NCBI GenBank assembly: GCA_965645245.1
Contig: OZ287078.1
Span: 434,001 to 498,000 of the forward strand
Reading direction: 5' to 3'
Origin: Massalongia carnosa
Lineage: Eukaryota
DNA length: 64,000 nt
Shown: in pieces, positions 1,903 to 64,000 of the stretch
Layout: each line of letters starts with the position of its first letter
Position numbering within the stretch: the first letter of the stretch is position 1
The notes under the pieces: generated by a model
The model's input: only the letters and a program-made list of their open reading frames with translations
Database searches by the model: none
Told to the model about the DNA's origin: nothing
Made by a program: the position numbers and the translations under genes

Positions 1903-3681
1903 CTAGAGCCCCGACTTCATCGAAACTTTCTCTCCGTGTTCAGGCAGAGGGCTCAGGTCCCCATGAACGTAGTCCCGCTGGTGCTCAACAAAGTCGTACT
2001 GGGGATGAATTAGCGGATAGATCCGGCACAGCGAGGGACAAAGAACATACGGCAAACTCGCCAATCTCGGCGTCGTCGATACCGTTGATCTCAGCGTTTT
2101 CGGAAGCGCGCAAACTCAACCCTGGGATTAAGTTCATGATGAATAGAATGATGCAGGTGCCGCCAAAGGAGTACGTGAAACCTGTCACGCTGTCCGCGAG
2201 TTGATAGGCGAGTTGGATGTAGTGGCCGTTGAGCCAGCCTCCCGGGATCACCGTGAAGCCGTCGAGATGCGCGACGTAGTTACTGAGCACCGAGGTTAGC
2301 AACGACGGACTCGTGACGGCCGAGGGAGATGTGCTCACGCTGCGAAAAATCCGGTGAGAAGGTTCCCAACGACACCGCCCACCGCGTGCACAGCAAAGAT
2401 ATCCAGGGAGTCGTCCACTTTAAACACATATTTTAACTTGGTCGCAAAATTGCAAGCTATGGCTCCGACCACTCCAAAGACCACCGAGGACCAGACGGGC
2501 ACGTAACCAGACGCAGGGGTAATAGCGACCAGTCCTGCGATGGCGCCGGAGCAGAAGCCGACAGTGGACCATTTCCGGTCAAGGCGATAATCCAGAAGCA
2601 CCCAAGTGAAGCCTCCAACCGAGGCTGCCATATGAGTGACCACACAGGCCGAGACCGCACGCAAATTCGCGCCCAAAGCAGAACCGCCGTTAAATCCGAA
2701 CCAGCCGACCCACAGGAAGACAGTCCCGATGACGACGTGAGTAACGTTGTGTGGCCGGTACGGAAGACCATGGAGATCGCTGTAGCCACGCCTTTTGCCG
2801 AGCATGACAGAGTACGCCAAGGCCGCCGCGCCCGAGGTGATGTGGACTGGCGTTCCTCCTGCAAAATCTAGGCCACCCATCTTATACACCCATCCAGCAG
2901 GATTCCACGTCCAGCATGCTACAGGATCGTAGATTATTGTGGACCATACCAACATGAACACTACGCAAGGGAGCATACGCCCTCTGTCCGCTGCGGCGCC
3001 AATGGCTAGGGCCGGTCTAGATCATTGCGATATCAGTTGGATTTCTTAATCCAAACGCTTCTCGGAAGGGCTCACGTAATAGCCGCGAACATGCATTGGT
3101 AGATGGCGAAGAGTAAGTCTGGAATCTTCGGACTCCCTACGGACGGCTGAGCCAGGACGTTTCGGAATCCAATATTATCCAGGTTGCCAATGAATTTGCC
3201 AGCCGTGTGTGAAAACACGAGCGAATATCCCCAAAAGAACCATTGGAAGCTGACAAGAGCCGCCGACATCAACGATAGCCAGATGAGCGATAGTGCTGAC
3301 TTGCGCCGGGCGAGACCGGAGTAGAAGAAGCTAGCGGCGGGTTAGCTTGCACTTAAACTGAACGTGAATCCCGTTAAAAAAATATGGTTTAGATATCGGA
3401 GATTTCTTACCCAACACCTGGAATCATGAGAAGTACCAATGCCGATGAAGTCATGATCCATGCCAGATCACCCGACTATCAAAAAGAGCGTCAGCAAGTA
3501 CACAACGTTGATATGGATTTGCTTCCCCCGGTCCAGCGCATACCGTGTAAAAAACATTGAGATTTTTATTAAATGAATCTCCACCGGTAGGAACGGTGCC
3601 ATCATAAGGTTTGAGAACTGTGAAGTTCAGGGTCGCTAAGTCTCCAAAGGTTACTACTTTGTTGGGGTCGACGACCGACAT
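1903..3681 (-). CDS. Ammonium transporter (Amt/Mep family), multi-exon
   Basis: Motifs GDLAWIMTSSALVLLMIPGVG, FFYSGLARRKSAL, DFAGGTPVHITSG, LWVGWFGFNGGS, GLVAITPASG and DDSLDIFAVHAVGG. Several GT-AG introns. TAG stop at 1903-1905. Confidence 0.95.
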
Positions 3682-3839
3682 CTTTACTGTCTGCTATGCT
3701 GGATCAATCTCCAAGAGCGAGTAGAACAGAGGAAAGGGTTTGTACTTTGAGGGACGAAAGCACCTTTGTTGCGGGCCGGGGGGGGGGTCATATTCTATAT
3801 ACCATTCCTTCAAGGAGGGTGGGTGGGGCAGGCGACCAA

Positions 3840-4015: not shown

Positions 4016-7000
4016 GGATGGATGAAGGGGGTTCGAAGTGCTCTCAGCAGCTCGCCTAGCACACGGGCCCCATTGGCAGCCGTTTCGAGCTTGAGAATTC
4101 CCGTTCAGATAGGTTGCAGCTCATTCACTCCAATCAGACCACGAATAGCCCTGAGAGTCCCGGGGATCTCGGTCTTCCAAGCACGAGAGATCTTACGTGG
4201 GATTCTGCCGTCGGGTGACACGATATGATGCGGATGGATACAGAAACGTGTACTGTACTCTGTATCGTTCATTGTAACAGGATACATGACATGTGGCACT
4301 TTGCCCGGCGCTAAGCCTCTTTCCACGCCATGGTCTAGAATAGTAACATAGCAAGGGGTACCTTAACTCTAACAGCTAACCATGATAGCATGTGTCGATA
4401 TCAATGGTCCGTCAGAGTCCTGACGCCTCCCCGACTTCCCTATCTCTAATGAGTCCCTATGAAATTTCAGCTTGGTGCATTCGTATCGATGAAGATATGC
4501 CTCGTTACAGCCGGAATCGAAAGGGTGTAATGGACAGGCTAGGCGTGAAGATGGCGTGGACCAAACGCCCAACCGGCGTACAGAGTACCAGAGTACGATT
4601 CTTCATGATACCGACCTTTGTCGCCTTGCACTCTTTTGCCTGCAGATAAGGATGCAAGTGGTTTGGACGGAAGCGGGCTAGTGGTTTTAGCTTGCAGATA
4701 ACGAACCTTGTTTCGCATTGGCTGATCAGCTGATTGGCTGATGGAATGGGGCCAGAATGGTTGATGGAAATCCAGAGAGGTAAAGGAAGTGTTCGCTTCA
4801 AACGTTCTGCATGACCAGAAGAGGAAAACGGCACGGAGGATGCACCAAGCGAAAGTTTTAACGTCGCTACAGAGCAGCAGGATTTCCGGCTTACTTATGT
4901 TTTCCCGTTCAACCTTGATGGTTCAGGCAAATGACGAAGGTAAGGTGTCAGATCACTACGCATCCAAGTATTGAGGTAGGGGATGACTCTATCGCCTTAT
5001 CTATGGCGGCAGCAAGGCAGCGGGGTGTGGAGTGCGGAGTGCGGACCGTTGTTCTACTAGTCAACGTTAGTTGGGTGGTTAGGTCTTGGGGGACCATGAA
5101 CTGGCTCATTTGGCTAGTATATAGAGTGATAGATTTCTCAAGTCTCGCCACCTTGCTTATCTCTAGATAGTTAGGTCGGTCATGCTACGATGCCAGTCCC
5201 CTGTTCGATACTTGAGACAAAGTATTCTGTACAATACCTTCAAGGGATGGGAGGTGATTGGGTCGTTGAGGGTGAAACTCTCGCCGGGGAAGGTTTCCTT
5301 CAGAACCGACCACCGGACCACTTCCACGCCTCCCATGCTGTTGTACAGAGTGCTCGGTAAGGAAATGATGATGCATTATGCAAGGCGTGCATTGGTTGCA
5401 CATCAGACCAACGCCAAGCATCAAAGGCCGAAACCGATCGTTGGTCGCTCGCTACCGAATCCCAACTCCTACCACTTAGGGTTATTCAACCTGCCCCCGG
5501 TGTGCCCTAGTTGTCTACCCTGCCCTACTCCAATTTGCCCTATTGCTCTCATTTATCTTCCCTAATCTCTCCTAATCTACCCTCATTTACGCCGGCAGAG
5601 GGGAATGATAAGAACAGTTCGGCACTCTGATTCGTCCATGGGGGTTTTTCCCTTATTCTCCCCAGTTTCAATCAGGTCATTCATTGCCACGGCTCACCCG
5701 TTACGGCGGTGAGTCGGCGAGTCGGGGAGTCGGCGAGAAAGCTCTTCGTCTGTCTTTTTCGGTCTGGGGTTTTGGGTTTCGAATGCTCGTTTCACAAGTT
5801 TCTGGCCTGCAACGTTACTCGGTTACATGCGTCTGTACGGAGTAGGAAACCCAAGGTTTTTTTTATGTACCGATACTCCGTACTTACCCCAACTGCTAAC
5901 ATTGGTCATCAATAATTCCAGCATCGATGCGCTGGATATGTACAGAATACCTTTAACTACTCGGCTTGTTATGCGGCCTACGGATCGAAACCACGAATCA
6001 TGCAATGCAAAATGCCTCATGTCACGCCCGCAACAGAGCCATAAGCTTTCTGCAAGATTATACGCCGCACGATGGACCTGAAATAAATAAGATGAGTGAA
6101 TCGATGACATGGGCCACAGTTCTTTCACCGCTGGAGCATGGAAGTTTATCGCTACCGGGAATCCTTCCATCCAGCCAAGGTATCAACGGCAGCAGTCATG
6201 TACCATGCCGGAAAATGCTGCATGTACACCTAAGTATAAGTGGTTTGCTTTACCTTGATCACCACAAGCTTGATGGTTTCGTCTTGAACTATGCTATTTC
6301 GTTTTCTCATATAGGTCCAGGTCTCTTCTTTCTGCTTAGACGATGCGTTGCACCAGCTGTGAGAATGATGCAGAATCGTCGGTTCTGCGGACAGCCTCAG
6401 CGCATCTTCTTAAGGACGTCGAAACATCATGGGGGATGAATAAGAGAGTCAAGATACTTCTGAATTCTCAAATCGCGAGAATCGGCCTCTAACGTCTGAG
6501 GAGAACTGACGAAATGGCAGTGCTAGATTCGCAATTCAGCAACCGTCTGTCTGCGAGAACCTTCGTGACTCAAAATGCCGGGGCAATCTCCACCCGACCA
6601 ATCGAAGAACTTCACACCGTAACGTGGACACAATACAGTAACACTGCTTCAGTCTCTCGAAAAGCAAATAAAGCTTTAAGAGGATTCCTCCCCTTGGGCA
6701 AGCGTGCGCAAAAAAGCAAAGACACCAACAAGCCCACGTCTACGCTACCAGCTTACTTTATCCAACTCCTAGAGGATTCCGGTCGTTGTGCGTGCTACCA
6801 TCAAAGTTTCAGCGTGCAGCGTCATGCTGCCAGGATCAACGCACGTCAAAGGCCCGGTGGGAAGCGGTAGGCAGCAAAAGCGTGATCGCTTACCAATGCG
6901 TCAATCTAACGAGGATCGTGCATAGAAATAATGGGGTCCCCGCAAATTACTTGAAAAGGCGATTCAATCATCGCGGCCGTCGTGGTCTTCCCTCAGGCTG

Positions 7001-7261
7001 TCCCCAGATTTTCCCTTTGTGTTGATCTATCTGAGCGGTCAGGCATGGGGAACGCGCCTTGTAAATCCTCAGCTTCCGAGCACAAACCACCTGCGACAAC
7101 ATAGAGTATGCCGGTGATGTGGAGCCCTAAGCCGACAGTGTGCATCATGGACCGTGCATTCCGGGAATGGGCATCTCTGACGCAGATCGGAATGTACTCT
7201 ACTTATACTCCGTAAGGGAGCGTTGTCGAGCAGGCTGCACCCTCTCCATCGGGATGCTTGC

Positions 7262-7505
7262 CACGCGGGGACCAAAAAAGTCAGGACACCAAAATTTTCA
7301 CTCCACCAAAAACCTTCCATCATCAGACAATTTAGTTATTATGCAACGTCAATAAACATCCCAATTAGAATCTCATGATTGTCAGGAAGTATATCCTACA
7401 TCTACTAAAGCCGAAGTACAAGTTGTGTGCAACTTTAACGATGCGAATGAGAGATTTTTGGTGGAGTGAAACTTTTGTTGTCCCAATTTTTTTGGTCCCC
7501 GCGTG
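7262..7505. mobile_element. 244-bp MITE with ~50-bp imperfect TIRs (CACGCGGGGACCAAAAAA...) and a 5-bp TSD (CTTGC)
   Basis: Left end cacgcggggaccaaaaaagtcaggacaccaaaattttcactccaccaaaaa. Reverse complement of the right end cacgcggggaccaaaaaaattgggacaacaaaagtttcactccaccaaaaa. CTTGC at 7257-7261 and 7506-7510. No coding capacity. Confidence 0.88.
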
Positions 7506-10500
7506 CTTGCCAATCGCGTGTGCAAATTCGCTTCTACGGTTGGTACCGAGCCATATCTATTCTGTCAAGTCGTTACTTATTCAACCAGTTCTTGGCGGTT
7601 GTTATGTTCATGCTTGAAGTCTTTTTATTGAAATCTTTTGAATTGCGACAAGCCTTTGCGCTCAGTTTTGGAGATTCCATAAGTTTCGAGTTACAATTTA
7701 TCACTTCACTCATTTCTTGGCTTTCTATTCCCTAAGCCTTCTTTTTTGCTTTTCAGCGTTTGACTCAATGTTCCAATATTGTAAATCCAAAGCAAACATG
7801 GTCATGCAAGCATAAGGGCGTGCTACGTCTCGTTATCCTAATTTCCAATGATCCGACATCGTCTCCCTACCCATAACCTGCCCCAGAAATTGATGGGAGG
7901 TTCAACTGCGTCTCTATACAGAGTACCGATCGATCAGTGCAATTGTATTTGCCAGAGGGTTGCTAGCTATTTGGCTTGCCGCTCTACTTCCCATACACCC
8001 GTATCCTAACAATTAAACCTCGTTCCGGAACTCTGCGTCTCAAGTTTGTCTGAGCTGGCTGTCTGAATTCATTCGATCCAACGAAATTCATTTCCGAAAT
8101 TCCATCTGTACGAACATTCATTCCAGTCAGCAGATATTCTTTCTGCAGGGAGTGAAAGGCGGAAATCGTCATAATTGCATCGTATTGTTTAATCGTATTG
8201 TTAATGGAGGCAGCCAAGGATCGAGCTTTTTCTTTGCATGCATCACAGGTGCGTTTTGTGGATACTTTTTTTCTTTTTTTGCGCCTTCATTCAGCACAGA
8301 CAATTTCGGCTCCCAAAATAAACAAACAAATACTACCTCTATACCTAAATAAAAATCGAGTTACCCTGAGCTAGTGTATTCCCTGTTCCTCTGTACAAGT
8401 ACATACGGAGTAATGATTCAAAAAAAACCCTTCGCCAAGTATTAAAAAGTAATCAAGCATATCCTCAAGTTCGTTCGGAGCCATGTCCACAACAATTCTC
8501 TCGTCCAACCCCCTTTCTTTATTTAAAACTTCACAAGAGGGAAAGAAAGCATCCTAGTCAAGCCATTTCAGGTATGTACTCATATGCTTCCGACGAATTC
8601 CCTAACTCCTTAATCGCACGTCTCTCTCCCTCCCTACCTCCTTCTCTCTTACATGGCTCGTATCCCGTTCTGTCCATTTCTCAATATATCTCAATAAGTC
8701 CCCCTGATCCTACTCTATTCCCTGGTCCTTCCAGAGATCTCTGCTGAGAACGGACCCTTACGACTCTTCCGTCTTCGTTTAGTTGTCCGTTTCCGTGTCT
8801 TTCAGGTTGATCAATGATTTACATGTATTGGAAGGATATTTTTGTCTTCACCAACGGAACGAAATGAAATAAAACCAATCGTTACGTTGAGCGGCTTGCG
8901 CGAGGGTGTTTAAATGAGGTAGGTAGATAGAAAGATGAGAGGTAGTAGGTAGACAACTCCATTTCCTTCTCTTCCCTGGATATTCTTTTCCATCTATAAC
9001 TTATTCATAACATGATAACACACAGCATATCACCAAAACTTACCAACTAAACCACCTTTACTACTCTTTTATATTCTTCATCTTGTCATCATTGAAAATA
9101 CAAGGGATATACGACTTCTCGAAAATTAAATTAAACAAAACCCAAGATCCAAATGCGCGAGAATAATTCCATCTTGAATTCCTCAATCAAGTCTGATTAG
9201 CAGTCGCAAAAGGGCGGGGCGGTCCCTCTTTTTTTTGTCATTCCTCATGCTCTCCGTTCAGAAACCCAGAACTCCTGCGACTGGATGTCTCATTCTTGTG
9301 TCTGTTTTTAGGAGTCATGCATTTGGTTCGTATTATATGGTATCATTCTCTGCTCGATTCTTCTTGTTAAAGATGTGCGTGTATATCTTTGCTCAAAGGG
9401 TGTTTCATCCAAGCTCACATGATATTTCGGTTTTATTTTCGTGGTTTGTTAATGGCGATTTAATTACATTTTCCTTTTCGTGCACAGTCCTTCTTTCCGT
9501 CATCAATCCTTTCTTATCCGGCTATTTATTGCTTCATCGCCCGTCCGCATCAAAACCCATCGAATCTCAAAACAGGCATTCACGAGCCATGCAGCTAGAA
9601 GCAGAACAACCCTATCAATCAAAAACACCAACAAAGCCAGAATGAATTCCTCAGAATGTGTGAGTTCCCAGATTAGCATCGGGCTAGCCTCCCTCGCCAA
9701 GTTTCAGCGGAAATGCCATCTATGTCAAAAGCTAGCTTGCAGAAATTAACAGGGTGGCGCATCTTTAAACACTAACGACATAGGTATCGTATCTAAACGG
9801 GAGCGTGGGAAGAACGATAGTCGAACGGGAACATTCTGTCCAAAGAAGTGCGAGAGAAAGAGTGAATGAGATAAACGTGCCCTTTGGATCCGGGGATTTT
9901 CGTTATCGACGACTGGTTATAACGAGTGTCGAATTCTATATACATGTAGGTCTCGTCCACGAGTCAATTTCACATGATTGTTATTTTTTTCCTTTTTTCT
10001 TCTTGAGATACAAAAGCGCGAAGACAACACCATTGAAATGGCTGAGGTTGTATGTCGGCGGGATATAGGGACTAGACGGATTGGTTCGTCGAAAGACTCG
10101 GGTAAGAGTTTCTTCTTGTTTCTGCAGGAGAATGCTTTGACTATGGGCTCCTGAAACGTGGTCTTGTTGTTGTTGTTGTTGTTAAGAACGATCAGGGAAG
10201 AAATAATCCATTCCGATATATCCTCAAGTTCTCTATATTCTGATAGACGCGTTGTCACTCCACCCATCCCTCCCCCACTCCTTATTCTTCTTCTACAGTA
10301 TCTAGATAACTACTCCATACCTGCCTTCTAGCCTAGTCTATCAAACCCATTTTCTCCCTCCAAAAAAGAAGAAAATCACAGTCTTCGTCCTGGTAGACTC
10401 ATCATTCTCCATTATTATAAAAGAGAAAAGAGGTGCACCTTTCTTCTCTTTTTCTTCGAAGGAGCAAGACCTGCTTTTTTAAATGCCCTCGATTCATACC

Positions 10501-36860: not shown

Positions 36861-38166
36861 TTTTGGTGACTTGTTGATTACAGTTGGTGTTAGTGTTAAA
36901 TATTCATTTTTTAGACTTTCATCAAAAGGAATGCGCTGAACCCGCGCTAACGATACCACTTATGCGGGGAGAACAATTCATTTACGATATTTTGCGCTCA
37001 CCTTTAAGCCCTATGCCGTTTCTATACTTCCTAATTCCAAAACTACAATTAAATGAAGCTCCCACCGTTTGCTCTATTAATGCTTTCTTCTGCCGCTTTC
37101 TGCGACCATCCTAACTCATCACTCTATTAGTACAATAACACCTTCAGTGACAGACCTAACCCGACACGAACTACAGAAGAGGACTATGGACTCAGTACGC
37201 CAACCCGGTCATCGTTATCTAACCAAGCGAGGCCTCCTCTAGCCATACACTGGCTCCGGGGTTCGACTGCCAACACTATAACTTGTTGACTAAGAAACAC
37301 CTAGCGCCAGAGAACAAGAGTTTATACAAAAGGATGTCTCCCGGTCTAATCCGAACAACCTTCAGGAAATGTACCGTGGGCTGCACAACTGTCTCTCTCT
37401 CCGCCTGCCGCAAGATGCGGTGACAGAGCAGTAAATGATCGTCTTAAATACTTCACCGACGTTCTTCTGAGCCTGGTCCGAAAGGGTCCATTAGCCGTGT
37501 TCACAAAGCAAACTCTCAAAGTCAAAGTGCGGGGATTTGCGGCATTGCATGATCAGAAAATCACTTTCACCGGTAAACATGTCCGTGGGACTGCTGAGCA
37601 GAGGCTGCTGCGCTGTAGATGTCGAAGCAGAGAATACCTGGCGAAGATCGAGGACCATCACGTAAAAACTATCGAGCATTCCCAGCTCATGGGTATTGAA
37701 GACGCTGCATATGTATCCCCTGAATGCAACGTTGTCGGTAAACAGCTGGGCAGCTGGATGGCGCAGTCCAGAAACTTATGCGTAAGGCAGGAATAACAAG
37801 TCTTCCATATATTCTCTTTCAGTGTACTCGTAGTCAACAAGGTCTCTACAACCCCTCGAGACTTGGAGTGACTGTGTTATCGTACGGTGCATTTACACCT
37901 TGCTCAAACAAGTCATCTTTGCTCAATAAGTTAGTAGTTTTCTAAAGCGCCAGATCTCTTATCTTGCGGAAGAAGACGAATTGTAAGGACAGATAAAGCA
38001 TCTGGGTCACAGTCCTTGGTACGAGGTTTTTTTGGGGCGGCTTCAACAAGACCGGTTCATGCAACCCATTTTCTCTATGAAAGAACATTGATACAGAGTT
38101 TGCAATTCGGCGAACTTCGATCTAGCGAAGCTGCTCACGGCGCACAAGGCATTGGCGCATAGGTGG

Positions 38167-39452
38167 CACGCGAGGGACAAAAAAAAACTACACCAAAATT
38201 TAACCGGGTTCAACCCCCACCAGCAATTTACATACAATTTTGATGGGATAATCACCATTTCAACAATCAGTCATCCAATTCATTCAATCTATTCAATAAC
38301 CAGTCATTTTACCCTCACCATCCAAAACAGCTCTCAATCTATCTGGCATAGTAGACACCCGTTCATTGATAAATGCCTGAGAAACGTTCGCCCACCACTC
38401 ATAAATTAGCCCCTTGGTCGTACTATCATCCCAATGAGGATATTTTTTTAAATATTGCTTCGGGGCCTGCCAGCAATTTTCTATGGGGGCCAAATCAGGT
38501 GTACATGAATAGTTGAAATAGTGCTTCAGATCGTTGTTCTGCTTCCGAGTGCGTACAATGTTTGATTTGCCTGGCCCATGTCCAGAATCACCGTCTTCTT
38601 CTAAGACGAAATCGTGTTTTGCTTCAATCCAGGGCTTCACAATAGGCTCCAATATAGAGTCGATATAGACTCGTTGACTCATCTTTCCATTGAAGTTTCC
38701 AGGAACTTTGTAAAAGTAGATATCTGACTTGAAGTCATGACCTGCTGCAGCCCAACAATGATGTCTCTTCTTGACGGCCTCGTCTGGCTCATCTGCTTCT
38801 TGAATACAATCATGACAATAACGTTCACCTAATCTTCGTATGATACGTAATTTGCCCTGAGGTCCCCATCCAAAGTGCACTTCGTCGCTAAATCGAACTT
38901 GTTTCCAGTCTTCTGCATTTGGATATCTAGAAAGCATAGCATCTGACCACTTCATACGAAGCTTTCTTGTCTTCTCCTTCACCCATCCCTTTCTCCACGC
39001 AATGCATTTGTGATAATCCATGGTGCCCATGATTCGTTGAATGGTTTTGCCACTGCAGTCTAGGCCCACTTCGAAGCCCAATTGCTCCCATGTAAGAGCG
39101 CGCGCCTCCATACCTTCTTCTTCCAATAGCCGTTCCATTTCTCTAATCAATTTAGGTGTAACAATTTTGTGACGCCCACGAGCTTCAGAAACATCGGAAT
39201 TATTATGATGACGGCGTGATGAGGCTCCTTCACGCAGGTATGCATAGCCCCTCGTACGTTCCACATCAAATGTGCGAAAAACATCCGCTTTGTGATAAGA
39301 AATGCCTTGCTTTTCGCAAAATTCAACGGCTCCCTGAATTTTAGCTTTGGTAGGAGTCTCGATATGTTTAGAATTCATAACAATGATGATTATCCCATCA
39401 AAATCGTATGTAAATTGAAAATTTGGTGTAGTTTTTTTTTGTCCCCCGCGTG
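38167..39452 (-). mobile_element. 1286-bp autonomous Tc1/IS630-type DNA transposon with CACGCG termini and a 5-bp TSD (GGTGG)
   Basis: Outer TIR 38167-38201 vs 39418-39452 match at 33/35. Inner TIR segment 38224-38259 vs 39382-39417 match at 34/36. GGTGG at 38162-38166 and 39453-39457. Encloses an intact transposase ORF. Confidence 0.93.
38293..39378 (-). CDS. Tc1-like DDE transposase, DD37E, 361 aa, uninterrupted
   Basis: Probable start MNSKHIETPTK just inside the TIR. HTH-like N-terminus, then WKQVRFSDEVHF (first D), VLEEDGDSGH (second D) and 37 residues to PDLAPIENCW (E), the Tc1 SPDLNPIENxW signature. C-terminal MPDRLRAVLDGEGKMTGY resembles the Tc1-family tail. Confidence 0.92.
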   Translation of the reverse strand: MNSKHIETPTKAKIQGAVEFCEKQGISYHKADVFRTFDVERTRGYAYLREGASSRRHHNNSDVSEARGRHKIVTPKLIREMERLLEEEGMEARALTWEQLGFEVGLDCSGKTIQRIMGTMDYHKCIAWRKGWVKEKTRKLRMKWSDAMLSRYPNAEDWKQVRFSDEVHFGWGPQGKLRIIRRLGERYCHDCIQEADEPDEAVKKRHHCWAAAGHDFKSDIYFYKVPGNFNGKMSQRVYIDSILEPIVKPWIEAKHDFVLEEDGDSGHGPGKSNIVRTRKQNNDLKHYFNYSCTPDLAPIENCWQAPKQYLKKYPHWDDSTTKGLIYEWWANVSQAFINERVSTMPDRLRAVLDGEGKMTGY

Positions 39453-40945
39453 GGTGGCTCGGGGTCATTTGAGCGGGTAAACATGTACCTCCGTATATAC
39501 ACTATGTAACACTCGTCTGAAAAGATGACGGTGGATTTGCTTAACAGAGTTACGGGTTGCAGCTCCCTATATCGTACTGGCCTTTTCCTATAATTATATG
39601 TTACCTTTTCGACACTGAAATTGTCTACAAACTATTACTATATCATCTAGCATAGGTGTTAGAAGTGGCTTGAGACGACCTACTGCACTCCTTTTTGCGC
39701 CCCTGAATAAGCTGGTGTCCGTGCGTTTATAGCGTCTTATTCACGGCTACAATAAGAAGCTACTGACAAGTAAGTAAACTCGTTGTATATTCTTTGCCTC
39801 TATTCGACTCATGCTGAGTAGTCAGGATTAGATTGGGAACAATTCTCATCAAGATTAAATTGATAACCGTCGCTGTTTGTGATCGTCGCTACAAGTAGTG
39901 TTCCATATTTAAAAGACATACAATCGTCGAATACAGAGGCAAATATAACCCTCCTTAATAAAAAAAGGACCTCGCGACCACCTTCTTTTGGCCCCCTGCA
40001 ACAATCCCTGCAGACCCTTTGCAATATACCAATTATAGAACTTGCCGCGAAGGAGACTCCTTAAAAAATAAGGAGGAGGCCGAACCGAACGGAAGGCCTT
40101 TTCATTATAAGGAGGTTACCGAACGGGGCCTTAGACTACATACCTTAAACGAGCCACATTCAATTACCCCTCATTTTTTTAGAAGACTCAAGCCCACCAA
40201 ATTCCCATGCTACGCCCTACATTAATGTAGTTAGCGTACGAATTAAGGCATCACAAACTTGCCCTCTTTGATATCATGTATTAATCTGGGAATGTCTAAG
40301 ATCGCAGTCCTCTGCAAGCTCTTTCGTTGAGCTACGCTCTATCGCAGTTCACCTGTATCCAACCCCCTCCATTCTCATTCTCATACTGGCACGTCAAAAA
40401 CCGCAAGGTTAACTGAAACATAGAAAGAGACTCAAGCTGGAGGAGTAGAAGTAGACCTCCCATCATTCATCTAATAGAATATCACATACGCGGAATAACT
40501 TAGCGTTTCTAGGAACACATATCCCATAGACCCCAACGTAAACCTTTATATATTCCATACCAATGAATAGATGATGCTGAGGATCAAGGTAGATGTTGTT
40601 TATATAAGATTTAGAGACATTCAGCCACCTAGATTCAAAAAGCTCACCAAATTTCCTAAAAATGGCCTTGTCGAATAATCAGTCATCACATAAAATATAC
40701 GTTAAAATGCTAAACGACAGAAGATCCGGTTGGAAATGTACAGCAATTCTTTGTATCCGTTACACTTCTTGCCGCGCGGCTCCGCATAGGAAGTCACAAG
40801 CGAGATAGCTATTAAACTGTAATACCTCGTAAGAACAGGGCTATCAGCCTTGTCGTACTCGTAACTCGGCAGAGACGTCGTACTGCTTCGTTCACTTCTT
40901 CGCTCATGATCGCATGAACCTCCTGTCTACACAATCCTCAAAACC

Positions 40946-41640: not shown

Positions 41641-42037
41641 GATTTCTATTTTGGGGTATCCCGAGATCGGCGTTGCAACGAGTTTTGCGACTAGGCGTAT
41701 ATAACATTATCAAGAACAGGCAATTTGGCCATGAATTAAACTGGTATTATATGCACCGGAGAGTTTGCGAGGAGAAATCTTGTTTTGCTTAAGAAGAGTG
41801 AGCGACCCTCAGATGTCGATGCAATCAAGGTCAAATGTGACAAGATCGGTCTATAATGCGTGGAATGAGCGGGTTAAGGTAGCCTACCTCTCTTGCCGTA
41901 GGTGTTAGAAAGAGTTTCGAACATGTCTCTAGGTCGGGCTGCACATGATAATAACTTTTTGGGATTGTATGTTGGATCTAAGTAATTCGACTCGTTCGTT
42001 TCCTACGACTTTTTTAAAAGAATGCACACTTCCGATA

Positions 42038-43954
42038 ATCGTGCCAAAACACTAAACCCCAACCGAGTCAGGGTCTAGTGCCCATGACGCATTCAGCCTA
42101 CTGACGCACTTTTCCCATTTTTACTACCATTTCCGCTACAAATTGGGGACAACAACGGTTAATCAAGATTTCATTGATTATGACGCTGGTAAAACAGCTT
42201 TGCTTGCCTGGGCATTGATCGAGCGATGCGTTTATACCTTTTGTCTAGGGCTATCTGCTTCTTTTCAGCAGCTAGTTGGGCCCATTCATAGGCCAGCCTG
42301 GTCATTTCCACCTCATTCTGACAGCGTTTTGAGGTTTCGGCTCGTACGTCCCCCACGGTTATGACCCCTCCCTTCTGGGCGACCTTTCCATCCAGTTTTT
42401 TACGGGCCGCCTTTGCGACGGATTGTTGATGACTGGCCAGAAGGTCCCGTTCAACAATCTGACGTGCATGAGCGCTGGAAATGGAACCTTCACAAATCGC
42501 CCCACATGACGCTCCCATTCGTTGTCCAGCACCTTGTATTTGGCCAGACTCATACGGAGACGCATACCGTATTCAACCACCTCTTTAGTCGTACGGGGCG
42601 TTCTGGCGAGCAATGGGGCTGACGAAGGTGGGGGCGGGGTAGCAGGTCTTCGGGTCTGAATAGCCTCCAACTTTCGAATTACCACATCGGGATTGTAAGG
42701 CACCAAACCCCTGTTTCTGAATGACGATAATATAGTGGCCGAGGTGAATGTTTGATTTCGCATGCGCTGAAAAATCGACAAAAAGTCGAGTTTGTCGAAA
42801 TCTGCCCCTCTGAGTCGTACCAGTTCGTCAATGCCTTCGGAATGATAATGTTTTAAATGGCTGAAAACATCCTACATCCAATGGCTGAGTGAGATGTGTT
42901 GAATGAGGCGGCAAATGAAACAATTCAATCTGTTTTCGTTTGGCATATGTAAAGAACTCGTATGTCATATGAGATCCATATCCGTCCATAATCAACATAC
43001 GCCAGGCACCTACCTGACCCTTTCGACTGTGTTTATCAAAATGTTTCAGCCAATCAATGGCCAAGTCATCATTGGAATAGCCGGTAGGACTAGTAGTCAA
43101 CAAAACATCGTCATTCAGGTCGTTCTGCTGCGCCCATTTTTCGAGAATCAAAACCCCCGCGATAATCACCATTGGGGGAATGTCTCGACCACCAGCACTA
43201 ATACACTCACAGGAGGTGACGTATTCTCTGTTGTCTAGGTTTGTCAACAACAGAGGCTTTCTGGAATGACCTGACACCACCCAATGAGCCCTGCCACAGC
43301 CAACTCGAAAGCCCGTTTCATCCATGTTCCAAACATCCTCGTCCACTATTCCCCGCGCCTCGCGCGCAGCCCGATATGCCTCGAAATATTCACGTATGTC
43401 CTTTGCATTGTGCGCGTGTTTTCGCTCGGCCGCCAAAGGTTTTTGTTTTCGTTTGAAGAACTGAGGATTGCGATTGAGGAAACGTTTGGTCGAAGAATTG
43501 CTGACGATGGGGGAGTGAAGGCGTCTAAATGGGCTTCTCGAAGTAGATAATTGGCAGCTCCACGAACCATTGGAAATCTGGCTGATTGTTCAGCTTGATC
43601 GAGCATTCGAATGTAATCACAAATAGCCAATTCCTGTTCATCAGATAACGCCTTGTTGGGGGGAGTTCGGCCAATGCGCGAACCTCCTCCAGCAAGTCGT
43701 CTTTGAAGAGTACATACGAACGTCCACGCCAAAATCAATGGCTGCTTCGCGTATACTTCGAAATTCACCCGTGTCCCACGCGTTTATAGCGTCAACAATT
43801 CGATCCTCCTTATTAGAATATGAATTAGTCATGGTGGTGGTGGATGAACGACGTGGTGGAAATGGTAGTAAAAATAGGAAAAGTGCGTCAGTAGGCTGAA
43901 TGCGTCATGGGCACTAGACCATGACTCGGTTGGGGTTTAGTGTTTTGGCACGAT
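42038..43954 (-). mobile_element. 1917-bp pogo/Fot1-like DNA transposon with ~98-bp TIRs and a TA TSD
   Basis: Left end atcgtgccaaaacactaaaccccaaccgagtca...tactaccatttcc is mirrored at about 43857-43954. TA at 42036-42037 and 43955-43956. Confidence 0.93.
42171..43832 (-). pseudogene. Fot1/pogo DD35D transposase with four frameshifts
   Basis: HTH SIREAAIDFGV..TLQRRL, CENP-B-like LSDEQELAICDYI, WNMDETGF, LIMDGYGSH and 35 residues to TQPLDVG. The frame shifts at about 43713, 43510, 42855 and 42487. Confidence 0.9.
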
Positions 43955-45171
43955 TAGGGAATTTATTAGTCTCTGCATTGGCAGGTATTTTTTCAGCAAG
44001 TGAAGGTGTTGATCACCATGAAAGGATTGGTGAACCATTCACGGCTTTGGGGTGGTTATAATTTTTAGGCTTCAGCACTTTATATCTAAATTGCCTTCAA
44101 CCTTATGTTTTCTTTTGGAACCGCCTTGGTTAATCCTTAGAGTTTCCCCATTTACGTCCCTTTAGCAAACCCTCATGGGAAACTCATAACAACTTCTAGT
44201 TTATCTAAGTTCCCATCAAGCTTAGCCACCGAGGGACCAGGTTCGATCTTGGCCAAGTTCTGTCCTCGTCAAATTCTACAACCTATTGAACATTCAGGAA
44301 ACAAACATGCACCCATCAGCCCGTCAAAATACCTAAGAGACTCCTTTCAATACCAGCGCCCCGCGAGGAATATGATATTCTTTACGGACGCTTCAACAGT
44401 CTCACTCAGCAGATGGTATCTCATTCTACGATCAAAAAGCTTGCAATGTTCCTGTGTCCCCTTTGCATAGGCCCTTTCAGCTCGAAATATCTGCAACCAC
44501 CAGAGTATCAAGCAGCTCGCCTACAAAACGGAGTAAACAAGGGTGCTAAACCACGCGTTCAATTTGCTCTGAAGTCTCAGGTGCTGTCTCGAGCCTCGGG
44601 CGGAGGAGAGTGACATTGCAGGGTGCAGGCGAGAAGTATGTCGCACAAGCAAGGCATGCATGGAGGCAACGATGTGAGGCTATAGCAAATACATATGGAT
44701 AGATGGAGATGGCGCCGAGCTGCCGATCGTAACAAGGAGTATGCTTTTGCGAAGGATATTGAAATCAGCTCGTCAGGGAGAGGCTTATGCTGAGATTTTG
44801 AAATGGGCTGGTAAGCTAGTGTCCGTTTGTTCATATCTACAGCATCATGTTGGGTTTGAAACCTATTGGTGCTGGACTAATCATCGGAATGGTAGCGGTG
44901 TTGTTCCTTGTATCATCTTAACACCATTTAATCAATTTAAAACGTAGCTTTATTGTAGCTTAACTGTATTAGCATCGGATTGGATGACCGATGAAGTCTC
45001 CTAGTTGAGTGTCGAAAGCATACAGTATAATCGAGGGCATTCCGTACATTTCCAAATTCTGTACACCTTGCACGAGTAACCTACCCGTGACCCCTGTTTG
45101 GAACCTAGAGCAAACGAAAATTATTGATTATATCAACTTATCACCGTCATAACCACAATAGCTTTCTCTGA

Positions 45172-61793: not shown

Positions 61794-62050
61794 CACGTGG
61801 CTGACAAAAAAACCGGGACACCAAAACCCGCTTCCCGGAACAAATCAAGCAAACTTTTCAAAAAAGCATCTTTCTTGAAAATCATTCAGCAACAAAAACA
61901 ACCTGAAAAACCTTGAAGTCTTCTCAGATGACAGAACACATATCAATCTTAAGTTCCTCAAATTATTAAGTGTAGGAAAAAATAATTGCATGATATTGTT
62001 CTACGCGTAAGAGTGCTCAAGTTTTTGGTGTCCTGGTTTTTTTGTCACTA
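61794..62050. mobile_element. ~255-bp MITE related to the CACGCG family; right tip eroded
   Basis: Left end cacgtggctgacaaaaaaaccgggacaccaaaa. Inner 25 nt (61802-61826) vs 62023-62047 match at 24/25 as an inverted repeat. Shares the A-tract + GGACACCAAAA layout with the 7262 MITE. Confidence 0.7.
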
Positions 62051-63627: not shown

Positions 63628-63770
63628 CACGCGGGGCCAAAAGAAGTTTAGTTTCCATAACCAAGACTAAGTAAGGAGACTGTTCTTTTCACTTCAAATA
63701 GTTTATGTAGTTTTCTGAAATAATAATACGTATTGAAAGTATTTTTATGTTAAATCTTCGGCCGCACGGG
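63628..63770. mobile_element. Possible degraded short MITE of the CACGCG family
   Basis: Left end cacgcggggccaaaagaagttta. Weak inverted counterpart taaatcttcggccgcacggg at 63751-63770. AT-rich interior; no TSD recoverable. Confidence 0.4.
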
Positions 63771-63779
63771 CTCTTATCT

Positions 63780-63809
63780 TGATGATGATGATGATGATGA
63801 TGATGATGT
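63780..63809. repeat. (GAT)n microsatellite
   Basis: About nine GAT units. Other microsatellites include (CTT)n at about 49684-49711 and (GTT)n at about 10163-10183. Confidence 0.9.
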
Positions 63810-64000
63810 ATTCATACTCCGATATGACACAGGCCGTAGGCCGGCCCATGCGGGCAAAGCTATCTAAGTTATGTTACATGGAAAACCTTTCACAGGTGTA
63901 AAAACCATATCCCTTGATACCCGTCCGATGTGACTTCGGGTCGACGTCGGGCGGGAGACGCAGTGCAAAAGACGTGTGGGAACTGTAATGCCTTGTGAAA

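Follow-up and report, generated by a model that had tools for sequence, protein, structure and literature searches.

A stretch of 64,000 nucleotides from Massalongia carnosa (assembly GCA_965645245.1, contig OZ287078.1, positions 434,001 to 498,000 of the forward strand), hereafter the window, in whose coordinates all positions are given, contains a compact DNA transposon of 1286 bp at 38167–39452. The element has the termini CACGCG (38167) and CGCGTG (39452), imperfect terminal inverted repeats (TIRs) of ~71–93 nt, and a sole long frame, on the minus strand, that encodes a transposase. The pentamer GGTGG lies immediately outside both termini (38162–38166 and 39453–39457), and TA is found at neither junction between element and flank, as a preliminary description made from the letters of the window had reported and as can be read directly in the sequence. 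A TA step at 38160–38161 lies one base beyond the left repeat, and the target context as a whole reads TA-G-GGTGG-C-TC. The features of the locus are as follows.

38160–38161, unstranded: TA step, one base outside the left pentamer (extended target consensus; all 21 rebuilt sites have A or T at position -1)
38162–38166, unstranded: left 5-bp target-site duplication GGTGG (sequence reading and flank tabulation)
38167–38259, plus strand: TIR on the 3' side of the transposase gene, starting CACGCG (inverted-repeat pairs; loose ends of other copies begin at 38167)
38293–39378, minus strand: intron-less transposase gene for 361 aa, followed by a stop, DD37E (open reading frame, Pfam, profile and fold matches)
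39382–39452, minus strand: TIR adjoining the start codon on the gene's 5' side, with CGCGTG as its end (inverted repeats; loose ends of other copies begin behind 39452)
39453–39457, unstranded: right 5-bp target-site duplication GGTGG (sequence reading and flank tabulation)

Each TIR arm comprises an outer and an inner block. The outer arms (38167–38201 and 39418–39452) are 35 nt long and the inner arms (38224–38259 and 39382–39417) 36 nt, both pairs being 94% complementary, and the 22 nt between the blocks are present in the left arm only and missing from the right. The true start of the transposase is most likely the ATG at 39378–39376, giving 361 aa; a database protein of 96% identity, P0001, has the same start. 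This codon abuts the inner repeat, so that the element is nearly all gene. The longest open reading frame (ORF), 38293–39468 on the minus strand (391 aa), was rejected as the real gene, its ATG falling outside the element. In that ORF translation passes from the flanking ATG through the TIR into the transposase, and gene callers could report a chimera with 30 spurious N-terminal residues.

The transposase had been described as Tc1-like on the basis of the motifs FSDE / EDGDSGH / 37 aa / PDLAPIENCW, and we recovered the motifs, the open frame, and the DD37E triad. FSDE, EEDGDS, and PIENCW are found at residues 164, 261, and 299, respectively, placing the catalytic residues at D166, D263, and E301 in the numbering of a 362-aa translation rather than the 361-aa form; D263 was assigned by its position five residues ahead of a His, as in the alignment with Sleeping Beauty. 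When a profile of 30 relatives was compared with the sequences of the PDB, the sole real match was Sleeping Beauty SB100X (5cr4, E=4.5e-15). An AlphaFold monomer model of moderate quality (predicted local distance difference test score, pLDDT, 73.9; below 50 both in the loop after the second Asp and in region 175–196) gave a concordant picture in Foldseek, the top 15 listed matches all being Mos1 (transpososome chains), Sleeping Beauty, or SETMAR/Metnase, with template modeling (TM) scores of 0.70–0.76 over the catalytic domains and 0.70–0.71 for the Sleeping Beauty catalytic domain. Chains of Mu and of intasomes were matched only at E>0.3. The N-terminal region is helical in the model at residues 11–49 and 76–131 and in fold resembles, weakly, Pax5 and the bipartite domain of Tc3 (the latter at E=0.15, probability 0.95). 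Judged by this homology, the transposase is a member of the Tc1 family of the IS630/Tc1/mariner superfamily. The element also has the short length, the single gene, and the TIRs beginning CA of that group; TA insertion with TA duplication is the trait it lacks. By homology it belongs to the superfamily, yet without the textbook TA hallmark.

The preliminary description had proposed tabulating the flanks of further copies, and we did so for metagenome relatives. Seventy-nine metagenome loci encoding transposase relatives of 40–68% identity were fetched, and ends were located by aligning the upstream region to the reverse complement of the downstream region and by scanning for the terminus motif. 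We excluded duplicates of the same insertion (L007=L006, L017=L016, L024=L022, L029=L028, L046=L045, and L075=L074), loci sharing the site of L004 (L008, L009, L020, L021, and L034), loci with a flank or end missing from the contig (L019, L026, L043, L049–L051, L062, and L077), and loci with no convincing repeat pair (alignment score ≤31, plus L056 and L076). The resulting scripted set comprises 30 independent elements with termini set by homology, including both window elements (the second, a non-autonomous relative, is described below), the metagenome relatives in it having 41–66% identity.

An exact 5-bp flank repeat was present in 21 of the 30 elements. Exact repeats of other lengths were found in four elements for 2 bp, in just two for the 3 bp of a Zator-type duplication, in none for 4 or 6 bp, and in one for 7 bp, and TA stood at both junctions in 0/30. 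The chance expectation for one perfect 5-bp flank repeat is ~1/1024; when left and right partners were permuted, 4 of 870 pairs matched perfectly, all from two pentamers that each occur twice. The 5-bp duplication is thereby supported as a family trait of the clade, as opposed to a quirk of the window copy, and the earlier proposal of an IS630/Tc1/mariner lineage with a 5-nt stagger instead of TA agrees with these counts and with the Tc1/mariner sequence and fold of the protein.

The boundaries were compared with contigs of four public sequencing runs (three studies; runs labelled lichen metagenome or bearing coded names of organisms) mapped to 36900–40700. Contigs of other copies cease matching exactly at 38167 (X2: 3, X5: 1) and behind 39452 (X4: 2), so that homology between copies ends at CACGCG; two further contigs stop at 38165, their flank happening to end in GG. 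A run of the true ends beyond CACGCG, which the preliminary description had named as a way in which it could be wrong, is thus not seen. As a method control we used a pogo/Fot1-type element 2.6 kb away (42036–43956), with 104-nt TIRs that are 96% complementary, a DDE_1 match of 77 bits, and a transposase frame broken into several ORFs. TA stands at both of its ends, the pattern expected from a TA duplication, in agreement with what had been stated for it before.

These results bear on the reading that the 5-bp repeats are not target-site duplications at all, the ends having been misplaced and the true duplication being TA, or the matches having arisen by chance or microhomology. The first evidence did rest on two elements only, and nine of the 30 scripted elements have no perfect repeat. 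Against this stand the 21 perfect repeats set beside 4/870 in permuted pairs, the want of TA at both junctions in any element and of exact repeats at almost any neighbouring length, the divergence of other copies at 38167 and 39452, and the finding of TA by the same method at both ends of the pogo-type neighbour. We regard such an artefact as very improbable and already largely refuted.

The trait is also widely distributed among relatives. In a maximum-likelihood tree of 51 rows, which placed 19 of the 21 elements with a perfect repeat and leaves out partial matches and duplicates (among them L041 and L058), elements with 5-bp duplications occur in the majority of starred clades and to both sides of the midpoint root, neighbouring proteins of Colletotrichum/Chaetomium, Pyrenophora, and Rutstroemia. 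Their presence on both sides of the root suggests that the trait is old within the clade.

Based on the 21 elements with a perfect repeat we rebuilt the pre-insertion sites, against a background composition of 52% A+T. The symmetrised consensus is a palindrome of 11 bp, TA-S-[CCWGG]-S-TA (S, C or G; W, A or T), with the following counts.

Position -1, two places outside the pentamer on the left: A or T in 21/21
Position 7, the mirror position on the right: A or T in 19/21
Position 8, next outward on the right: A in 16/21
Pentamer centre: A or T in 17/21
Pentamer bases 1 and 2: C in 13/21 each

The flanks at loose ends of other copies fit this consensus, one ending TAT-TCGGA and one beginning ACAAC-ATA. 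The relaxed, GC-rich target choice suggested earlier was not borne out; as read from the rebuilt sites, target choice is specific and symmetric.

The element had further been characterized by its CAC termini. This holds for the window element and part of the clade, but other members start otherwise and yet show 5-bp duplications: L028 with CTCGCG, L042 with CAAGC, L041 with CAAGTGGG, and L047 with CTCCCC all have the 5-bp repeat, and CACCCTGG is another such start. CAC-type termini with 5-bp duplications are typical of the Transib/RAG group. It could on this account be supposed that ends and duplication come from another superfamily of Transib type, and that the Tc1-like gene is a captured passenger. 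The same type of end, however, accompanies the same single gene across relatives of 41–96% identity, the elements (1.26–1.5 kb) have no room for a second gene, and an impala-like motif in the inner TIR keeps the register of a published expression (a passage of PMC5579170, discussed below). The Pfam scan of the transposase gave no match to a RAG1-like domain, and no RAG1 or Transib chain is among the listed Foldseek matches of the model, in line with the earlier statement that Transib/RAG is unrelated. Together with the 5-bp duplications of members lacking CAC, this leaves a captured gene the least probable of the readings considered here, with hardly any weight. The element shares CAC ends and a 5-bp duplication with Transib/RAG while its transposase is unrelated, and by this comparison the likeness is convergent.

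Among described elements, impala of Fusarium oxysporum is compact, ~1.3 kb with a transposase of ~340–360 aa, and both impala and mimp of this species duplicate TA. The window element resembles impala as a compact fungal element of ~1.3 kb with one intron-less transposase of ~340–360 aa that spawns MITEs (miniature inverted-repeat transposable elements), but the TA duplication of impala/mimp contrasts with the 5 bp of the clade, in which TA flanks 0/30 elements. The impala subfamily is given as DD37E in a passage of PMC7325037, and the window transposase has this spacing. A TIR expression for mimp/impala, which leaves two free flanking bases, is printed in a passage of PMC5579170; the terminus of L014 aligns to it in register, CA first, with the inner motif GGG..GCAAWAA equally far from the end in both. 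The sole difference in this alignment lies in terminal bases 3–5, which read CGC in place of the GTG/GTA of mimp/impala, and the expression as given in that passage had 0 matches in 403,772 bases searched. No Fusarium protein is among the 120 best matches of either protein search described below, which points to a clade distinct from impala proper. Set beside it by statements in the literature and likeness of the TIRs, impala is the closest described relative.

The comparison with Sleeping Beauty/Tc1 rests on the homologous catalytic domain (5cr4 and TM scores above), CA-initiated TIRs, a paired-like N-terminal DNA-binding region, whose scores are weak here, and a palindromic extended target. 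In contrast, Sleeping Beauty/Tc1 is DD34E with a TA duplication and the clade DD37E with a 5-bp duplication, and in the alignment the transposases of the clade carry three additional residues behind the second-Asp motif, and the Pro-Lys of Sleeping Beauty is replaced by Ser-Gly. Other members of the wider group provide precedents for a stagger not fixed at 2: the C. elegans elements Tc4 and Tc5 have a 3-bp duplication, TNA, and Zator likewise duplicates 3 bp. These have pogo-like or Zator transposases, whereas the clade has a Tc1-family protein and 5 bp without a T..A frame; Zator is named a separate superfamily of the group in the abstract of PMC7386202, on pogo. In its inferred working the element is also like more remote DDE enzymes. 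Phage Mu and the retroviral integrases use 5-bp or 4–6-bp staggers across the major groove, with flexible, bendable target steps, and a symmetric, weakly palindromic pentamer target is the point of likeness. They belong to other DDE families with multi-domain or multi-subunit proteins, and homology with the element is limited to the RNase H-like core.

A possible course of insertion is the following. The palindromic extended target implies a symmetric dimer; a transposase dimer holding both ends would capture the approximately palindromic 11-bp target TA-S-[CCWGG]-S-TA. Each 3' end would be joined to a phosphate at one edge of the central pentamer, the two phosphates lying on opposite strands with 5 bp between them, and gap repair would then duplicate the pentamer. 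The A/T steps outside the pentamer may be a displaced remnant of TA recognition, the sites read by the two subunits having shifted away from each other; or they may give the target the flexibility needed for bending. A candidate determinant of the stagger is the Gly/Ser-rich loop DGDSGHGPGKS after the second catalytic Asp, a conserved segment that exceeds its Sleeping Beauty counterpart by three residues and has little order in the model. A caveat on such a role for the loop is that impala uses TA, and impala also is DD37E (a passage of PMC7325037). In its widest form the proposal is that an ancient Pezizomycotina Tc1 clade, so far undescribed, reset its stagger from 2 to 5 bp with the outer A/T steps kept, and possibly to 7 bp in L059; for this whole we would offer slightly less than even odds.

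Several observations weigh against the interpretation developed here. Among the nine scripted elements without a perfect 5-bp repeat, L016 matches at 4 of the 5 bases, L001, L038, and L059 match perfectly only with an offset of 1–2 nt at one junction, and L013, L018, L022, L055, and L072 have no flank repeat. Nine more elements with decayed or ambiguous termini, read by eye (L027, L031, L033, L036, L044, L045, L057, L065, and L074), added no perfect repeat, bringing the total to 21/39; a perfect repeat in L057 would need an offset of 3 nt. The reading of the 1–3-nt offsets in L001, L038, and L057 stays speculation and was not counted as support. The target motif is weak at 18 ends of imperfect elements (7th base A or T in 11/18, 8th base T in 9/18); this would be expected if some of their flanks are no longer original, and is not independent proof. 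An empty site was seen in none of the four runs, junction contigs being present in all of them and no joint skipping the element, so that duplication on insertion is deduced from direct repeats instead of a before-and-after pair. Both Pfam scores of the window copy fall short of the curated cut-offs, HTH_Tnp_Tc3_2 scoring 27 bits (cut-off 31.5) and DDE_3 (PF13358) 26 bits (gathering cut-off 28.6); P0001 scores 32.6 bits for DDE_3, above the cut-off, and PF13358 is precomputed for most relatives. The relation to impala draws on literature statements and TIR likeness with no impala protein in the tree, and the geometry of dimer and stagger is what we infer. With these points taken into account, we put at roughly 85% the probability that the element is a compact cut-and-paste Tc1-family transposon (DD37E) of autonomous type, from an ascomycete clade that makes 5-bp duplications.

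Some loci of the tabulation merit separate mention. L059 (668–2024; 41% identity, termini CAAGGCC) has a perfect 7-bp direct repeat, CCCAGGT, in which a CCAGG core is extended by a single base to the left and to the right. A sublineage that keeps the palindromic core but uses a 7-bp stagger may be represented here, by a single case whose sister, L072, has no repeat. L039 contains two copies 700 bp apart (2401–3692, flanked by CCTCG, and 4393–5684, flanked by TATGT), each with its own 5-bp duplication. The translated copy (2501–3598) has 18 stop codons and a composition skewed relative to the rest of the alignment, suggesting repeat-induced point mutation. In L018 (2340–2362) the sequence CCCAT-CGTG-CCC precedes the terminus on the left, and CCCAT opens the flank on the right. 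The footprint of an earlier excision, a pentamer with terminal bases, with a later new insertion would be one explanation and a small rearrangement another; both are speculation and the locus was not used as support. Six contigs of different records (L004, L008, L009, L020, L021, and L034) share one insertion site, with right flank CGTGGGTAG..., and in L008, L020, and L021 the left end is truncated and fused to other DNA. They resemble orthologous copies from related genomes in which deletions occurred later.

A word-indexed protein search with the transposase returned 331 matches, the named ones from Pyrenophora (including Pyrenophora tritici-repentis), Bimuria, Clathrospora, Ophiobolus, Macroventuria, Colletotrichum, and Rutstroemia. 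A second search with the Colletotrichum member as query added Chaetomium (Chaetomium globosum), Parathielavia, and Botrytis, and a look-up of 10 distant relatives extended the range to Xylariales (Xylaria) and Coniosporium; impala is absent from the named matches of all three. Named hosts are filamentous ascomycetes without exception. An exhaustive search gave 221 clusters (50% identity) at E≤1e-30 and 916 at E≤1e-10. On these matches the clade is large and spread through the filamentous ascomycetes.

A full-text literature search, which did not extend to Repbase, Dfam, subscription journals, or supplements, returned no report of a Tc1/impala-like element with a 5-bp duplication. TA is treated as general for the superfamily in passages of PMC5630946 (TRT) and PMC7325037 (Tc1/mariner phylogeny), and likewise of PMC5751038 (fungal cut-and-paste survey) and PMC13469147 (Dici). 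The Dici transposon was considered as a described precedent and rejected, a passage of that paper reporting TA; a Pyrenophora pangenome paper had no bearing on the question. The family could be real and already be listed, 5-bp duplication included, in Repbase, Dfam, or a fungal repeat library. The clade is large and occurs in well-studied genomes (Pyrenophora tritici-repentis, Colletotrichum, Chaetomium globosum, Botrytis, and Xylaria), the 221 clusters are many, and curators of fungal repeat libraries very likely built such consensus sequences; on the other side are the literature search without such an element and the passages that treat TA as general. We consider prior cataloguing quite possible, if rather less than an even chance.

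TA insertion and duplication serve as a defining character of the IS630/Tc1/mariner group. Annotation programs use TA to find and classify its members, and annotations of fungal genomes are therefore likely to give elements of the clade wrong boundaries or no class. As close relatives with a 5-bp stagger on an 11-bp palindrome, they amount to a natural experiment on which parts of a Tc1-type transposase determine strand-transfer spacing and target choice, a question approached in Sleeping Beauty and Mos1 through structures and mutants. If the interpretation is right, the target-capture geometry of an otherwise uniform superfamily is evolvable, and the clade offers a natural compact Tc1-like vector with non-TA target choice around a GC core. 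The elements being very small, with a single intron-less gene in ~1.3 kb, an active copy might be tried as a tool for mutagenesis or gene delivery, with a target spectrum that would differ from that of TA-restricted vectors.

The family looks recently prolific in the host. Summed contig depth inside the element is ~40–300x that of the flanks in the four runs, a sign of many copies and not a copy number; many contigs of family copies in the runs are ≥99% alike, and the 90% cluster of P0001 has 42 members. The window copy differs from all or nearly all other mapped copies at ≥25 positions, mostly transitions. Its transposase differs from P0001 at 13 residues and carries C129W, W279R, S294T, and G329W at residues conserved in ≥90% of 29 relatives, P0001 having one such departure versus four in the window copy. 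By these differences the window copy is probably an older, possibly impaired one and not the active one. The preliminary description had suggested that the element may still be mobile. An open frame, an intact DDE triad, both TIRs, and membership of a high-copy family with near-identical contigs speak for continued autonomous mobility of the window copy; with the ≥25 differences, the four substitutions at conserved residues, and an insertion common to all four runs from three studies, we consider it unlikely.

The window includes further relatives of the element, listed here.

7257–7261, unstranded: left target-site duplication CTTGC of a MITE (sequence reading and flank tabulation)
7262–7505, unstranded: MITE, non-autonomous, 244 bp, CACGCGGGG termini (terminus comparison)
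7506–7510, unstranded: right target-site duplication CTTGC of the MITE (sequence reading and flank tabulation)
61795–62050, unstranded: degenerate MITE-like relative (inner TIR blocks match the MITE; outer termini decayed, no duplication readable)
63628–63660, plus strand: left terminus alone (CACGCGGGGCC...), from another family member (partner end outside the window)

The MITE has 54-nt TIRs that are 89% complementary, and its first ~37 nt are ~81% identical to the termini of the autonomous element, with no transposase homology inside. A related MITE at 7262 with a different target-site duplication had been noted before, and the CTTGC flanks on both sides agree with this. As a non-autonomous passenger, it would depend on this transposase or on a sister of it.

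Adjoining the transposon is a repeated segment, 39688–40131, with summed contig depth ~10–100x that of unique flanks in all four runs, loose contig ends at 39688 and 40131, and no obvious coding frame. The flank of the lone left end at 63628 is CTA-CCAAG, which fits the target consensus, and a (GAT)n microsatellite of ~13 units lies shortly downstream of this end, at 63770–63810.

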